Part shown: in pieces, positions 1,587 to 6,974 of the stretch
Layout: each line of letters opens with the position of its first letter
How positions within the stretch are numbered: position 1 is the first letter of the stretch
Assembly: GCA_964549075.1 (NCBI GenBank)
Contig: CAZJUB010000048.1
Coordinates: 1-19,312 of the forward strand
Direction of reading: 5' to 3'
From: an uncultured archaeon
GTDB lineage: Archaea > Asgardarchaeota > Heimdallarchaeia > Heimdallarchaeales > Heimdallarchaeaceae
DNA length: 19,312 nt
The notes under the pieces: model-generated
What the model was told of the DNA's origin: nothing
The model's input: only the letters and a program-made list of their open reading frames with translations
Databases searched by the model: none
Translations under genes and position numbers: made by a program

Positions 1587-3155
1587 TTGGGTGCTAAAAC
1601 TGATAACTCAACTACAAAATACGAAATTCGTGCATCCTTCGAAATTGATGGTGTTGTTGAAAAACCTGATATTATTGGAGGAATCTATGGACAAACGGAT
1701 GGATTATTAAGTGAAAATCTAGATATCCGTGAACTTCAAAAAACAGGTAGAATTGGAAGGATAAATGTTGAACTTCACAGTGAAGGAGGAAAAACTTCTG
1801 GAAGAATTTTCATTCCAACAAGTTTATCACGTATGGAAACAGCTATTTTAGCTGCTACTCTTGAAACAGTTGATCGTGTGGGTCCATGTAGCTGTGCTGT
1901 AAAACTTGATGAAATTGTAGATGTAAGAATTAATAAACGTCAAAGTATAGTGGATCGTGCTTCTGAGATAATTAGGCAATGGGATCAAAAAGTAAGTCCA
2001 TTTTCTAGTAGTATTAGTTCAGAAGTAGAAAAAACTACTAAGGCAAGTCAGGTATTAAGCATAAGTGATGAAGGATTTTCTGCAGGACCTGGTTTTGAAA
2101 ATCAAAAGAAAATAATTCTTGTTGAAGGTAGAGCTGATGTAGTCAACCTACTAAAATATGGTATTGATAACACAGTCGCAGTAAATGGAACAAGTATTTC
2201 TCCAGAATTAGTTAAATTAATCTCAAAGAAAACTGTAACTGCGTTCTTAGATGGAGATCGGGGAGGAGATCTTATTCTAAAGGAACTCCTACAAGTTTCC
2301 CATGTGGAATATGTTGCTCGAGCTCCACTAAAAAAAGAGGTGGAAGACCTAAATCAAAAGGAGGTTACAGAAGCTTTAGAGCATGCTGTCCAGTTAAACG
2401 ATGCAGTATTCCTTACAGGAAAAGATGCAGAAATTACAGTTAAAGAATTTCTTGAAAAAAGCAAACCTCAGAAGAAAAGGCTTCGATTCGGATCTAAGAA
2501 AACAGAGATAACTAAAAAAGAGACAACCAAACAGAAAGATACAGGTATTAAAATTATAAAACCAGCATTACCTTCAAAAAAGCCTGAAGTTAAAAAAACT
2601 AAGCAAAAAGCAGTAAAAACTGAAAAAGACGTTGAAAAGGAGAAAATTCCAAGTAAACCGGTTTCAACCAAACCAGTAGTGTCTGCACAATCGACTCCTG
2701 CTAGTAGAACAACAACTCAAAAAAGACCTCCAAGTAGACCTTCAGGTAGACCTCCAGGTAGATCTCCAAGTAGGTCTTCTTCAAAAAGACCTTCGAGTAG
2801 CCATTCTAGCAGAACCAGTACTCGAACCAGAACTTCAAGACCTCCAAGAAGAGAAATCCGAAAGGTCGAGTTACCTGAATATTTATCAAACGCTGTTAAG
2901 GAAATCAATACTAAATTGGAAGCAATAGTTTTTGATGAAGCAGATAAAGAGATTATGAGAAGCTCTGCTGCTGAAGCTTTCGATAATCTTGGTAAAATTA
3001 AAGAAGGTAAAGTACTCGTAATAGACGGAGTAATGACTCAAAGATTACTTGAACGATCTAAGGAAAAAGGGATCACTACTGTAATTGGAGCACGAAAAGG
3101 AGAAATATCTAAAAAACCAACTAACGTTAAAATAATTGAATTTAAGAACGTTTAA
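1587..3155 (+). CDS. dnaG: Archaeal DnaG (TOPRIM primase-like, exosome-associated) with a long basic low-complexity insert
   Basis: N-terminal GVVEKPDIIGGIYGQTDGLL...LRELQKTGRIGRI-type motif; TOPRIM motifs IILVEGRADV and FLDGDRGG; TTG start with SD AAGGTGA at 1573-1579. Confidence 0.95.
   Translation: MGAKTDNSTTKYEIRASFEIDGVVEKPDIIGGIYGQTDGLLSENLDIRELQKTGRIGRINVELHSEGGKTSGRIFIPTSLSRMETAILAATLETVDRVGPCSCAVKLDEIVDVRINKRQSIVDRASEIIRQWDQKVSPFSSSISSEVEKTTKASQVLSISDEGFSAGPGFENQKKIILVEGRADVVNLLKYGIDNTVAVNGTSISPELVKLISKKTVTAFLDGDRGGDLILKELLQVSHVEYVARAPLKKEVEDLNQKEVTEALEHAVQLNDAVFLTGKDAEITVKEFLEKSKPQKKRLRFGSKKTEITKKETTKQKDTGIKIIKPALPSKKPEVKKTKQKAVKTEKDVEKEKIPSKPVSTKPVVSAQSTPASRTTTQKRPPSRPSGRPPGRSPSRSSSKRPSSSHSSRTSTRTRTSRPPRREIRKVELPEYLSNAVKEINTKLEAIVFDEADKEIMRSSAAEAFDNLGKIKEGKVLVIDGVMTQRLLERSKEKGITTVIGARKGEISKKPTNVKIIEFKNV
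2724..2783 (+). repeat. Degenerate in-frame 12-bp tandem repeat within dnaG (R-P/S-P/S-S/G units)
   Basis: agacctccaagt agaccttcaggt agacctccaggt agatctccaagt aggtcttcttca encodes RPPS-RPSG-RPPG-RSPS-RSSS. Confidence 0.8.
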
Positions 3156-3178: not shown

Positions 3179-3322
3179 CCGTAAAATTTATGAATTTAAT
3201 ATTTCTTGTAGAGTTGAGATGATGCACTTGGAATATCTATAACCTCCTTCAGATTTTTATTTGCTAGGTTAGTGAAACCAAGGTATTTTCACGATTATAT
3301 TTTTGCATTGAGGTGTATTTAA

Positions 3323-4390
3323 GTGACTATAGATGAAAAGGTTAAACTGGTAATTAAAAATACTGAGGAAGTGATTCTTAAATCTGAAATACGAGATTTA
3401 ATAGAGAAAAAGAATAATCCTAGAACATATATCGGTTTTGAGTTGTCTGGCTTAGTACATTTAGGAACTGGAATTGTATGTGGCAATAAGATAAAAGACC
3501 TTATCAAAGCTGGTTTTGAAACTATTGTATTTCTAGCAGATTGGCATAGTTGGATAAATAACAAACTTGGAGCAGATATGGAAAAGATTCAACTAGCTGG
3601 AGAATATTTCAAAAAGGCTTTCGAATCTGTAGGTGTCAAAGGACCTAGAGTAAAATATATCTGGGGATCTGAATTAGCAGAAAAGGTGACTTACTGGGAA
3701 AAAGTTGTGAGAATAGCAAAATCTAACTCTTTAACAAGAGTGTTAAGAACTTTACCTATAATGGGTAGAAAGTCTGAAGGCGACCTTGAATCTGCTTTCT
3801 TGTATTATCCCGCAATGCAGGTCGCTGATATCTACGATATGGAAATTGATTTAGCTTACGGTGGTATGGATCAACGAAAAGCTCACATGCTTGCGCGTGA
3901 TACTGCTGAAAAACTTGGAAGAACCAAACCTGCCTGTATTCATACCCCTCTCTTAACTGGTTTACAAGGTTTTGGTAGAAAAATGGATTCTGAATCAAAA
4001 CCTGATCTTGCAGAACAAATAGATGTTAAGATGTCTAAATCAAAACCAGAAACATGTGTTTTCATACATGATACAGAAAAAGAGATTTTCGAAAAAACTA
4101 CAAAAGCTAATTGTCCTGCAAAACAAGTGATAGCAAACCCCATTACTGAAATCGTCCAGTATATCCTTTTTGATGTTTTTAACGAAATTAAAATTGAACG
4201 GGATGCAAAATATGGTGGTGATTTAATCTACCATACCTTCAAATCTTTCAAGGAAGATTATGAAAAAGGTGAGATTCATCCTCAAGACCTAAAGATTAAT
4301 GTTGCAAGATTATTAAACCAGCTTTTGACACCTTCACGAAAATACTTTGAAAAACATGAAAATCTTATAGAAGAAGTTAAAAAACTCTGA
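3323..4390 (+). CDS. tyrS: Tyrosine--tRNA ligase (archaeal/eukaryotic type)
   Basis: YIGFELSG..HLGT (HIGH-like), LADWHSWIN, YPAMQVADI, GGMDQRKAHMLARD and KMSKS motifs; GTG start with SD GAGGTG. Confidence 0.96.
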   Translation: MTIDEKVKLVIKNTEEVILKSEIRDLIEKKNNPRTYIGFELSGLVHLGTGIVCGNKIKDLIKAGFETIVFLADWHSWINNKLGADMEKIQLAGEYFKKAFESVGVKGPRVKYIWGSELAEKVTYWEKVVRIAKSNSLTRVLRTLPIMGRKSEGDLESAFLYYPAMQVADIYDMEIDLAYGGMDQRKAHMLARDTAEKLGRTKPACIHTPLLTGLQGFGRKMDSESKPDLAEQIDVKMSKSKPETCVFIHDTEKEIFEKTTKANCPAKQVIANPITEIVQYILFDVFNEIKIERDAKYGGDLIYHTFKSFKEDYEKGEIHPQDLKINVARLLNQLLTPSRKYFEKHENLIEEVKKL

Positions 4391-4406
4391 TTTCTTCTTT
4401 TTCTTT
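4391..4406 (+). terminator. Probable oligo-T terminator after tyrS
   Basis: tttcttctttttcttt directly follows the stop codon. Confidence 0.45.
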
Positions 4407-4419
4407 AATAGTCTTTGAC

Positions 4420-4433
4420 AAAAAAGTTCAATA
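4420..4433 (+). promoter_or_regulatory. Candidate BRE/TATA promoter for the ncRNA
   Basis: Purine-rich AAAAAAG followed by TTCAATA (4427-4433), about 25 nt upstream of the first hairpin at ~4454. The TATA match is imperfect. Confidence 0.4.
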
Positions 4434-4452
4434 CCATTCATACGATAGTAAT

Positions 4453-4672
4453 GTGCCTTTATCGAGGACTTTCTAGAGATGGCAAGAGCTAACAAGGAAA
4501 GAAAGTGCAATAAAAAGGCAAAAGACTACCAACGGGCTCCTATGGAGTAGAGTAGGACTCTACACAATGAAGTAAGGGCAACCCTGGTAGACAACAGTTG
4601 CTCCTGAGGAGCTCAACTAACTGATATGGGAAAATCCCTAAATATGATGTTTAGAGTTAACCTCAGGAGCAT
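4453..4672 (+). ncRNA. Putative three-hairpin box H/ACA pseudouridylation guide RNA
   Basis: HP1: lower stem gccttt(4455-60)/aaaggc(4514-19); pocket atcgagg / gcaa; upper stem actttct(4468-74)/agaaagt(4500-06); K-turn AGA...AAG-GAA; then AAAAGA (ANANNA). HP2: ctacca(4526-31)/tggtag(4585-90); pocket acgggc / gcaaccc; K-turn GGA...AAU-GAA; apical gtagagt/actctac; then ACAACA. HP3: tgctcctgagg(4599-4609)/cctcaggagca(4661-71) with a C/D-type K-turn CUGA(4621-24)...UGAUG(4645-49). The HP1 and HP2 pockets match recalled archaeal 23S PTC sequences. Confidence 0.8.
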
Positions 4673-4736
4673 TATTTCTGTTTTAAGATGAAAACATAAA
4701 AAATAAATAATGATTCAATAATCTTCCCGTGTTTAT

Positions 4737-4815
4737 GGGGCAGTGATCTAGCCTGGTCTATGATGCCGCTCTCACACAGCGGATGTCGCAGGTTCAAATC
4801 CTGCCTGCCCCACCA
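4737..4815 (+). tRNA. tRNA-Val (anticodon CAC), intronless, CCA encoded
   Basis: Acceptor stem GGGGCAG/CTGCCCC, D arm with G15 and GG, anticodon arm CCGCT-CTCACAC-AGCGG, T arm GCAGG-TTCAAAT-CCTGC, discriminator A plus CCA. Confidence 0.97.
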
Positions 4816-4843: not shown

Positions 4844-5299
4844 ATGCCTCAGTTAGTCAAAGGAGGGAAATATGTTTTTGGTTGGTCTTATGTTGGGGAT
4901 GAGGGTAAAATCTCTCTCCCTCCTGAAGCTTGGATTGAGTACAACTACCAATTATATGATGAAGTTATTTTGATTTCGGGGAGTAAAACTTCAGGGGGTT
5001 TTAGTATCATAAAAATAGATAAATTACTAGAATCGTCTTTGTCAAGGATAATAAGTGAATCACAAGGTAATCTTCCAAAAAACGAGATTTTTCAAAATGG
5101 AAATAGGAATTTATTTGTTTCTACATTTGAAGAAGAGTGTGCTATTAATCTTAAACCCAATGTTCTCAATAAATTTGGCATTGGTCTCAATACCAAACTA
5201 TTAGCTGCTAGAGGAAGCGGTTTAGGACTCGGTCTCATAGCAAAAGGCCCCATTTATCAAGAAGCTGAAAATCATCCCGAACTAGAACTTTTTACATAA
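4844..5299 (+). CDS. Conserved hypothetical protein, probably tandem AbrB/MraZ-like swapped-hairpin fold (151 aa)
   Basis: Start reassigned to ATG 4844 because the track start overlaps the tRNA. MPQLVKGGKYVFGWSYVGDEGKISLPPEA resembles AbrB-type V-x-x-x-G-x-I-x-IP; a second similar unit is FEEECAINLKPNVLNKFGI. Confidence 0.7.
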   Translation: MPQLVKGGKYVFGWSYVGDEGKISLPPEAWIEYNYQLYDEVILISGSKTSGGFSIIKIDKLLESSLSRIISESQGNLPKNEIFQNGNRNLFVSTFEEECAINLKPNVLNKFGIGLNTKLLAARGSGLGLGLIAKGPIYQEAENHPELELFT

Positions 5300-5316: not shown

Positions 5317-6297
5317 ATGAACCTAGAACCTTCCTCTAAACAGAATAATTTTGTTGATTTATTCTCTGGTGCAGGAGGTTTTAGTCTAGGATTTAAAATG
5401 TTAGGGTTTCATGATTTACTTGCTATTGAGCAGAATGAAACTGCAGCTAATACATATAAACTGAATTTTCCAAGCTCACCTATTATTTTAAATGATATAA
5501 GAAAAATCCATGGTTTGGAAATTATCGAAAATGTACAAGATAAGATAGATGTAGTATTAGCATCTCCACCTTGTGAGCCATTCACATCTGCTAATCCTCG
5601 AAGGATGAAAACACCTTGGGAAAGATTCTATCAAGATCCACAAGGTGATTTGATATTTCATGCCATAAGAATTATTAGTGATCTAGAACCTGATTTTTTC
5701 GTTATTGAAAATGTCATCGCAATAGCTGAAGAAGAATCACAAAACATAATCAAAGATGAGCTTGGCACTATTGGATATGAAAAAATTTATTTTAATTTCG
5801 TCTCTGCAGAGAAACATGGTTGCCCAAGTGTTAGGAAAAGAGTTTTTATATCAAATCTTAAATTTCAATTACCATTTCGTAGTGAAATTACGGTAAAGAA
5901 TGCCATATATAGCTTACCTTCCCCATCCTATCCAAATGATTATCAAGGACATTTTACCCTTCCTTTTGCTAAACAAGCAGAGAGAAAAGCGCTCAAAATA
6001 AGAAAAGGAGACGCAGCAGTTCATTTTAAAGGTGCAAAAGGGGAATTTCAAAACTGGATAAAACTTGACGAAAATGATGTTTGTCCTACCGTAATGGGAA
6101 AATCAAGATTCATTCACCCTACTGAGAATAGACCTTTAACAATACGCGAACATGCAAGACTACTTAGCTATCCTGATACTTTTCATTTCTTGGGTTCTGT
6201 AGAGGAAATGTTTAATCAGGTAGGAGAATCAGTCCCTCCAGTAGTTTCTAAAGGAATTGCAGAAAAAATAAAAAATAAGATTAAAGAAAAAGAATAG
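5317..6297 (+). CDS. C5-cytosine methyltransferase (Dcm family, archaeal orphan type resembling MJ0563)
   Basis: Motif I DLFSGAGG, IV SPPCEPFT, VI ENV, VIII PSVRKRVF, IX RPLTIREHARL, X QVGESVPP. Confidence 0.92.
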   Translation: MNLEPSSKQNNFVDLFSGAGGFSLGFKMLGFHDLLAIEQNETAANTYKLNFPSSPIILNDIRKIHGLEIIENVQDKIDVVLASPPCEPFTSANPRRMKTPWERFYQDPQGDLIFHAIRIISDLEPDFFVIENVIAIAEEESQNIIKDELGTIGYEKIYFNFVSAEKHGCPSVRKRVFISNLKFQLPFRSEITVKNAIYSLPSPSYPNDYQGHFTLPFAKQAERKALKIRKGDAAVHFKGAKGEFQNWIKLDENDVCPTVMGKSRFIHPTENRPLTIREHARLLSYPDTFHFLGSVEEMFNQVGESVPPVVSKGIAEKIKNKIKEKE

Positions 6298-6302
6298 GGA
6301 TT

Positions 6303-6974
6303 CTAGATGGAAGTAAAAACTTCTCCCAAGCTTGAAAATATCAGCGCCAGGGGTACATCTAGAATGTTGTGAAAAGTTTTACGAGCTTTTCTAATTGAAA
6401 ATAAATCAGATGTGGAGAAGATTTTACCGTTTTTATTTACAGCTGTAAAAGAATCTTTTGCAACCCAAATAAGACGATTTTCTCCTTTGCGAGCAATTAT
6501 CTCTTCTTCTCCCACCATAAATGTAGAGTCTTCATTGATAAACCATAGAGATGTGGAGTTATATGTTTGTATCATTATACTTTCCTTTTCGTCATATCTG
6601 ATATAATCTGCTCGTTTAATCTGATGTTTGTATTTTCTAACAATCTCTTCATACAACTCTGTTTCTTCTAATGGCGGGATTTCTTTCACTTGATCTTTGG
6701 TAAGGAAAGGAAGTTGAACGGGGAAAAGAAGAGCAGTTGAATAAGTGTCCTCTATAATCTCCCCTACAGCTCCTTTTGCGGTATGAACAAGTAAATCAGC
6801 GATTATCCCTGTGGGACCATCAAGTAGAAAACCTATCTGTCGGTTTTGGTTTTCATCAAAAACTGGTAGAAGTATGGAATTTTTAGATATAGAAAGTTTC
6901 ACATGTCTGTTATCAAATGTATATTCAAAACTATGTGTTGTTTTCAAAGGTCTGTTTTTTACAATTAATCTCAT
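6303..6974 (-). CDS. Hypothetical beta-rich protein, last gene of the ArsR operon
   Basis: 223-aa ORF with SD GGAGG upstream, 17 nt after the ArsR stop codon; no motif recognised. Confidence 0.7.
   Translation of the reverse strand: MRLIVKNRPLKTTHSFEYTFDNRHVKLSISKNSILLPVFDENQNRQIGFLLDGPTGIIADLLVHTAKGAVGEIIEDTYSTALLFPVQLPFLTKDQVKEIPPLEETELYEEIVRKYKHQIKRADYIRYDEKESIMIQTYNSTSLWFINEDSTFMVGEEEIIARKGENRLIWVAKDSFTAVNKNGKIFSTSDLFSIRKARKTFHNILDVPLALIFSSLGEVFTSI

Follow-up and report, generated by a model that had tools for sequence, protein, structure and literature searches.

The window, that is, the whole stretch of 19,312 nt analysed here, contains a tyrosine-tRNA ligase gene and a tRNA-Val gene separated by a spacer of 346 nt, and this spacer houses a structured RNA with the features of a three-hairpin archaeal box H/ACA sRNA. 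The extent of the RNA was judged from the point at which its similarity to relatives begins, from its fold, from a match to the Rfam family RF00064 that spans 4399-4678, and from a match to our own three-hairpin model R1 that spans 4453-4684. The features at the locus are as follows:

3323-4390, + strand: tyrosine-tRNA ligase, the upstream neighbour (NF006330, 419.9 bits)
about 4454-4675, + strand: predicted three-hairpin box H/ACA sRNA, whole; ends approximate; similarity to relatives begins at 4454, with RF00064, model R1 and the fold as further evidence
4672-4684, + strand: T-rich tract 3′ of hairpin 3, TTATTTCTGTTTT; T-rich tails are present in all relatives
4737-4815, + strand: tRNA-Val (CAC), the downstream neighbour

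The sRNA has a G+C content of 42% and is thus A+T-rich. The fold of 4450-4680 was resolved into three hairpins at -70 kcal/mol with a z-score of -3.96, and none of 200 shuffled sequences folded as well. The T-rich tract behind hairpin 3 is likely an archaeal terminator. Elsewhere in the window, 1587-3155 codes for a 522-aa protein with a Toprim domain and 5317-6297 for a C-5 cytosine DNA methylase of 326 aa (166.4 bits), and no match was obtained in a Pfam search of the frames 4844-5299 and 6303-6974.

Two metatranscriptome runs each yielded one contig lying wholly within the sRNA and 95-99% alike to it; the first, of 190 nt, covers 4477-4665, and that from the second run, of 167 nt, covers 4505-4667. 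These contigs give a weak hint that the sRNA is expressed, presence in an RNA library being no proof of transcription; nor do the regions of the window left uncovered by such contigs carry any meaning. Two further RNA runs (X21 and X23) were considered as sources of transcripts from this locus and rejected, as their sequences matched part of the tRNA only, at less than 90% likeness, and then ran into unlike sequence, which assigns them to other organisms.

Hairpin 1: structure, conservation and family membership

The original prediction had placed the two strands of a pseudouridylation pocket at ATCGAGG (4461-4467) and GCAA (4507-4510), and this was borne out by both the sequence and the fold. 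Hairpin 1 has the layout of an archaeal H/ACA hairpin, namely a lower stem, a pseudouridylation pocket and an upper stem, and it is built from the following elements, in which the pair changes refer to an alignment of 20 sequences:

4455-4460, + strand: lower stem 5′ strand, GCCTTT; pairs with 4514-4519, and all 6 of 6 pairs change on both sides
4461-4467, + strand: 5′ guide strand, ATCGAGG; complementary to 23S CCUCGAU
4468-4474, + strand: upper stem 5′ strand, ACTTTCT; pairs with 4500-4506, and 5 of 7 pairs change on both sides
4475-4499, + strand: K-turn and apical stem-loop, with A4475, G4476 A4477, G4497 A4498 and A4499
4478-4483/4488-4493, + strand: apical stem, followed by the bulge AAG at 4494-4496
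4500-4506, + strand: upper stem 3′ strand, AGAAAGT
4507-4510, + strand: 3′ guide strand, GCAA; complementary to 23S UUGC, with the pocket strand extending to 4513
4514-4519, + strand: lower stem 3′ strand, AAAGGC
4521-4523, + strand: ANA box, AAA; ACA, ATA or AAA at the same column in relatives

The minimum free energy fold of 4450-4530 contained both stems of hairpin 1 with the loop between them open (-18.2 kcal/mol, z -2.24), and 7 of 200 shuffled sequences folded as well, so that the single sequence is weakly better than chance. The ANA box is situated one nucleotide past the lower stem and 14 nt after the upper stem, which ends at position 4506; the spacing used as the H/ACA criterion was about 14-16 nt 3′ of the pocket top. 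The GA letters of the K-turn were invariant on both strands in an alignment of 21 sequences from the genus, and the NNN-GA pattern on its 3′ side was kept in all 20 of the wider set of hairpin-1 homologues. This motif suggests that L7Ae would bind the K-turn of hairpin 1.

Next to the fold, the stems were assessed by covariation. Among the 20 hairpin-1 homologues, whose alignment was fitted to the model and in consequence favours structure, 89.1% were paired, compared with 39-52% when the partners were slid, and 16 of the 18 stem pairs had changed on both sides. For the 21 sequences of the genus, the paired share of cells was 93.2% versus 39.5-51.7% with slid partners, and 12 pairs changed on both sides versus 1-3 after sliding. 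Within these stems the guide strands TCGAGGAC and GCAA were invariant in 20 of 20 homologues from several families of the phylum, and the invariance of the 5′ guide reads as TCGAGG(AC) in the same 20. Invariant loop strands enclosed by covarying stems are the pattern expected for an antisense guide of an invariant target.

A permissive Rfam scan of 4380-4740 matched the region to HgcG (Pab40), RF00064, with 52 bits and an E value of 1.7e-13. The match was full-length (model 1-276) and collinear through all three hairpins, and the other three Rfam matches over 4380-4740 had E values of at least 3.1. The curated gathering threshold of RF00064 is 77 bits, and because the score of the window RNA lies below it, the sRNA goes unreported at the gathering threshold, where only the tRNA was reported. 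A match to RF00064 was likewise obtained with a homologue from a different family of the phylum (28.6 bits, E 2.6e-5). Pab40, HgcG and RF00064 are names of the same RNA (PMC4652768), and Pab40, Pf7 and Afu4 carry three motifs each (Muller et al., 2008; PMC2377435). Judged from sequence and fold, the window RNA is a divergent orthologue of HgcG/Pab40/Pf7/Afu4 and not a member at the curated threshold.

For the survey of genomes, RF00064 itself was of little use, as a whole-genome search with strict filters gave 1 match in 41 genomes and missed the window's own copy; blastn and our models R1 and R2 (the latter built on hairpin 1) were used instead. By blastn, the sRNA was detected in 23 of 24 same-genus genomes and was not found in 16 genomes of the order's other families. 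The three-hairpin model R1 matched 30 of 47 genomes of the order, among them 28 of the 30 from the family to which the window belongs and 1 of 16 in the other families. R2 matched 35 of the 83 genomes examined from the class, with 3 of 12 in family f3, and 19 of 151 in a sample of the phylum; two families outside the class were represented in the latter, one by 4 of its 5 genomes and the other by 1 of 5. Most of the genomes in class and phylum gave no match, and with strict filters and incomplete genomes these are to be read as misses, not as absences. A second R2 match in one genome (G044; 27.4 bits, 22% G+C, 3′ strand GAAA) was discounted as a likely chance match. When 80 loci around the ligase gene were fetched, an R1 match lay about 70 nt downstream of the gene in 18, and the remaining 62, mostly titled Bathyarchaeia or Bathyarchaeota, gave no R1 match at E up to 1; the relatives found through the neighbouring ligase are in records titled Candidatus Heimdallarchaeota archaeon.

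A different family of the order has the hairpin-1 guide as an isolated hairpin with an identical pocket (L135, 1519-1587, - strand; L168, 301-364, - strand). No ANA box was evident at the expected spacing in that of L135.

The z-score of only -2.24 for the single-sequence fold of hairpin 1, together with the lack of any Rfam family other than tRNA at gathering score here, could be taken to mean that the hairpin is a chance structure of the spacer or belongs to the tyrosine-tRNA ligase gene, as a section of its UTR or its terminator. The full-length RF00064 match at E 1.7e-13 and the compensatory changes at 16 of 18 pairs contradict this explanation, as do the pair counts within the genus, and the distant homologues came from genome-wide model searches, not from fetching the neighbourhood of the ligase. 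We accordingly grant it scarcely any probability, and the hairpin is treated below as part of an H/ACA-type sRNA.

The predicted 23S rRNA target of hairpin 1

The pocket strands had been predicted to pair with UUGC-[Psi-N]-CCUCGAU, leaving UA unpaired. When the 23S rRNA of the same assembly was extracted, the corresponding sequence TTGCTACCTCGAT was present with the required U and pairs with both strands; it occurs once in the 3.23-Mb assembly, on the + strand of contig C65 at 4924-4936, and the reversed TTGCTACCTCGAT pattern, searched as a control, gave 0 matches in the same assembly. The target reads UUGC-UA-CCUCGAU, with U-A unpaired between the two guide duplexes, so that hairpin 1 has bipartite complementarity of 4+7 bp to a stable RNA around an unpaired U-N. 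The site lies inside the archaeal LSU rRNA gene (RF02540; C65:1287-5521), and its sequence context is UUGC-U-ACCUCGAU. The target uridine, C65:4928, corresponds to position 2591 of the Rfam LSU model, and in the structure line of the model a helix has this as its final paired base, the single-stranded ACCUCGAUGU coming next. The uridine belongs to the 3′ foot of helix 89 at the central loop of domain V, next to the catalytic centre.

The specificity of this match was evaluated in several ways. In the own 23S rRNA, this target was the sole bipartite U-N site of at least 8 bp for the hairpin 1 guide, and it was again the sole site of at least 8 bp in the 16S and 23S rRNAs of a closed relative genome (G045). 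When the 7+4 guide letters were shuffled with their composition preserved, 6 of 2000 shuffles could form all 11 bp around a U-N in the own 23S rRNA. With G-U wobble allowed, 55 fitting sites were counted genome-wide against about 23 expected from base composition, and the 23S site was the only one of the 55 made up entirely of Watson-Crick pairs. It is conservation and homology that lift the target prediction above chance. Of 47 genomes of the order, 33 carry the pattern GGCTTGCT[A/T]CCTCGATGTCGGC, with A at the unpaired N in 23 and T in 10; because the target is invariant within the order except for this N, no covariation signal is to be had there. Two genomes of other families (G047 and G070) appeared to carry C at the target (...TTTGGCACCTCGAT...), and these were rejected, as the sequences belong to bacterial LSU rRNA contigs (RF02541, 841 and 444 bits). 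The contigs concerned, L176 and L177, are short, carry bacterial LSU and 5S rRNA, and are binning contaminants.

That hairpin 1 might guide some other substrate, such as 16S rRNA, a tRNA or another RNA, with the 23S match being incidental, was weighed against these data. A search of the own assembly found no 16S rRNA gene, and the 16S targets of the three hairpins were checked on the relative; this missing 16S and the 54 further wobble-tolerant sites in the genome leave some room for such a substrate. Against it, the 16S rRNA of the closed relative has no site of at least 8 bp, the 23S site alone is all Watson-Crick, guide and target are both invariant across the order, and the homologous Pab40 motif has the same target established (PMC2377435). 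We regard a different substrate as very improbable and retain the 23S site as the target of hairpin 1.

To place the site in standard numbering, the own 23S rRNA was aligned with a 2903-nt annotated E. coli 23S rRNA. The hairpin 1 target U aligned to index 2495, where the E. coli base is C; this index equals standard position 2496, the position that the original prediction had named. The U of the helix 69 loop, which is the predicted target of hairpin 3, aligned to index 1914 (base T), and the third U of GGGUUU in the own 23S rRNA to index 2585 (base T). The helix 69 uridine at index 1914 is, as we take it, standard E. coli position 1915, and with index 1914 set to 1915 the three sites become E. 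coli 2496, 1915 and 2586. By position mapping, the probable equivalents of the hairpin 1 target U are E. coli 2496, P. abyssi 2588 and yeast 2865, the P. abyssi equivalence being based on model positions, on the description in PMC2377435 and on spacing.

The own 23S rRNA gene (C65 1287-5521; L026) measures 4235 nt, compared with the 2987 positions of the model, and it differs from that of a relative by three extra or unaligned segments. The first comprises 681 nt and occupies positions 1903-2583 of the own 23S, the second, at 3232-3588 and roughly 357 nt long, is unaligned, and the third, of 150 nt, occupies 3747-3896, where it follows GUGAGA immediately and lies about 15 nt past the U2586 equivalent on its 3′ side. 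Within the 681-nt insert, a LAGLIDADG_3 domain (45.6 bits) is encoded by a frame of 185 aa; the insert is likely to be an rRNA intron that carries a homing endonuclease.

Hairpins 2 and 3 and the proposed mechanism

The other two hairpins of the sRNA have the following elements:

4524-4596, + strand: hairpin 2, lower stem 4524-4531/4585-4592
4532-4536 and 4579-4584, + strand: hairpin 2 pocket strands, ACGGG and CAACCC
4594-4596, + strand: hairpin 2 ACA box, at a spacing of 15 nt
4600-4673, + strand: hairpin 3, lower stem 4600-4609/4661-4670
4610-4615 and 4656-4659, + strand: hairpin 3 guides, 5′ AGCTCA and 3′ GTTA
4623-4624 and 4646-4647, + strand: hairpin 3 GA letters
4671-4673, + strand: hairpin 3 terminal box, ATT (not ANA)

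For hairpin 3, the best site in the 23S rRNA was UAAC-UA-UGAGCU in the loop of helix 69 (C65:3985, model position 2018), and motif 3 of Pab40 is described as guiding Psi2016 of the P. abyssi 23S rRNA (PMC2377435). Relatives have ATA, ACT, ACC or different letters at the terminal box of hairpin 3, and one closed genome has the box position base-paired within an extended lower stem.

In hairpin 2, ACGGGC and CAACCC were invariant in the genus, and no canonical target, defined by a 2-nt gap and at least 4+4 bp, was found for it in the own 23S rRNA. When 3-4 unpaired nucleotides were allowed, two 23S candidates were obtained, GGGGUUG-UAC-GCCC and GGGUU-UAGA-CCGU. The former we take to be the A loop with the U2554 equivalent, from a reading of the archaeal LSU consensus and from standard E. 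coli numbering. The latter contains the U2586 equivalent, the position proposed for motif 2 of Afu4 and Pf7, and motif 2 of the Pab40 family is reported to be irregular and to vary between species (Muller et al., 2008; PMC2377435). Hairpin 2 may be a dual guide.

The genome also encodes candidate partner proteins. A Cbf5-type DKCLD domain (59.9 bits, in a 341-aa frame), Nop10 (61.3 bits) and L7Ae (93.7 bits) were detected, and a Gar1 search gave no match in the assembly, which is 89.7% complete; in 1 of 4 archaeal control genomes Gar1 was missed by this search too.

We consider it very probable that the window RNA is a three-hairpin archaeal H/ACA guide sRNA orthologous to HgcG, and that its hairpin 1 directs pseudouridylation at the foot of 23S helix 89. 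From the observed structure, conservation, homology and target complementarity of the sRNA we infer protein binding, catalysis and pseudouridine in vivo along the following lines. The strands of the internal loop of hairpin 1 would pair with the 23S rRNA on either side of the unpaired U-A (5′-UUGC-UA-CCUCGAU-3′), L7Ae would be bound by the K-turn of the upper stem, and Cbf5-Nop10 would be anchored by the ANA box, which lies 14 nt below the pocket; isomerisation of the unpaired U to pseudouridine by Cbf5 would follow. For hairpin 3, the same reaction is predicted at the helix 69 loop (E. coli 1915), and hairpin 2, with its less regular pocket, may be aimed at the U2554 or U2586 equivalents.

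A reading that accepts the RNA as a genuine H/ACA-type sRNA may still hold that hairpin 1 makes no pseudouridine at its target in vivo, and acts as a chaperone of pre-rRNA folding or is inactive. The 3′ duplex of hairpin 1 is short, at 4 bp, which could render it inactive, and the stability of the 3′ duplex was found important for guiding in P. abyssi, where, of 21 sites predicted on equivalent grounds, 6 proved to lack the modification (Muller et al., 2008; PMC2377435); moreover, the box of the window RNA is AAA, not ACA, and a clear ANA box is missing from the single hairpin of one relative (G040). The evidence on the other side comes above all from the homologue, in that motif 1 of Pab40, with which the geometry of the window hairpin is collinear, makes Psi2588 of the P. 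abyssi 23S rRNA, a site reported as CMCT-positive in vivo, and ranks among the most active guides on reconstitution in vitro (+++, the highest class) (PMC2377435). The 14-nt spacing to the box is a specific requirement of catalysis and likewise speaks for modification, and the guide strands are invariant in the 20 homologues, as would be expected under either role. On balance, the absence of modification at the target seems to us quite unlikely, and guided pseudouridylation remains the preferred interpretation.

Eukaryotic counterparts and comparison with known guides

The original prediction had equated the target with yeast 25S Psi2865 and named snR46 as its guide, and both the site and the guide are so listed for yeast (PMC5699541; PMC8307265). 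The 369-nt offset by which the yeast position had been reached is consistent with the 15-nt spacings between Psi2588 and Psi2603 in P. abyssi and between Psi2865 and Psi2880 in yeast. The idea that not only the modified site but also its guide may predate eukaryogenesis stood in part: an archaeal family is common to this lineage and P. abyssi, but the Rfam scan of 4380-4740 listed no similarity to a eukaryotic snoRNA family at E up to 10.

Heimdallarchaeota are discussed as close kin of eukaryotes. The helix 69 loop site is presumably yeast Psi2258, guided by snR191, and the A loop candidate site we take to be yeast Psi2923, guided by snR10. The three pockets thus aim at uridines that are made pseudouridine in yeast by separate snoRNAs, namely snR46, snR191 and possibly that of the snR10 site. 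A direct descent of the eukaryotic guides for these catalytic-centre sites from hairpins of such multi-hairpin archaeal sRNAs is a doubtful proposition in our estimation; if true, the guides themselves, and not only the modified sites, would have been continuous through eukaryogenesis.

Already known are the motif 1 target in P. abyssi, the conservation of the site between archaea and eukaryotes and the proposal of its antiquity, the P. abyssi Psi2588 site having been called conserved in eukaryotes and possibly ancient in 2008 (PMC2377435), and the general picture is unchanged in this respect. The new elements are the presence of the guide in this lineage, below the Rfam cut-off, and the recurrence of the same pocket across several families of the phylum; a literature search for H/ACA guide RNAs in Asgard archaea found no paper. 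A known archaeal guide family and its target beside the peptidyl-transferase centre are extended in this way to Heimdall-type archaea, with a testable prediction of pseudouridine at one named 23S position, and the hairpin covariance model enables the guide to be traced across the phylum.

Among known systems, HgcG/Pab40/Pf7/Afu4 are the closest to the window sRNA. They share with it three collinear hairpins and a motif 1 pocket made of CGAGG and GC(G/A)A; the HgcG consensus has a K-turn of the form GA ... AAUGA (NNNGA) at an equal distance from the pocket as in hairpin 1, and motifs 2 and 3 of HgcG likewise contain the conserved letters AACCC and GUUA, respectively. The sites agree as well, motifs 1 and 3 of Pab40 being directed to P. 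abyssi 2588 and 2016 and the window targets lying at model positions 2591 and 2018, an equivalence by position (PMC2377435). The differences are a 5′ guide of motif 1 that is 3 nt shorter in the alignment than that of HgcG, a 3′ guide GCAA compared with GCGA, and the boxes AAA (hairpin 1) and ATT (hairpin 3) compared with ACA in HgcG; furthermore, the host of the window RNA is of the Heimdall type, whereas RF00064 is named after Pab40 of P. abyssi. The sR-h45 RNA of Haloferax volcanii is also a multi-hairpin archaeal H/ACA guide that acts on 23S rRNA via Cbf5; it has two stem-loops and guides Psi1940, Psi1942 and Psi2605 of the 23S rRNA, and the abstracts on it, compared here by description, name no target at the 2496 equivalent (PMC7075261; PMC5029457). 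With snR46 and the eukaryotic H/ACA snoRNP, the window sRNA has in common the same kind of guide mechanism and, by position mapping, the same rRNA nucleotide. Eukaryotic H/ACA guides have a two-hairpin layout with an H box and an ACA box and without K-turns, whereas the window sRNA has three hairpins, each with a K-turn.
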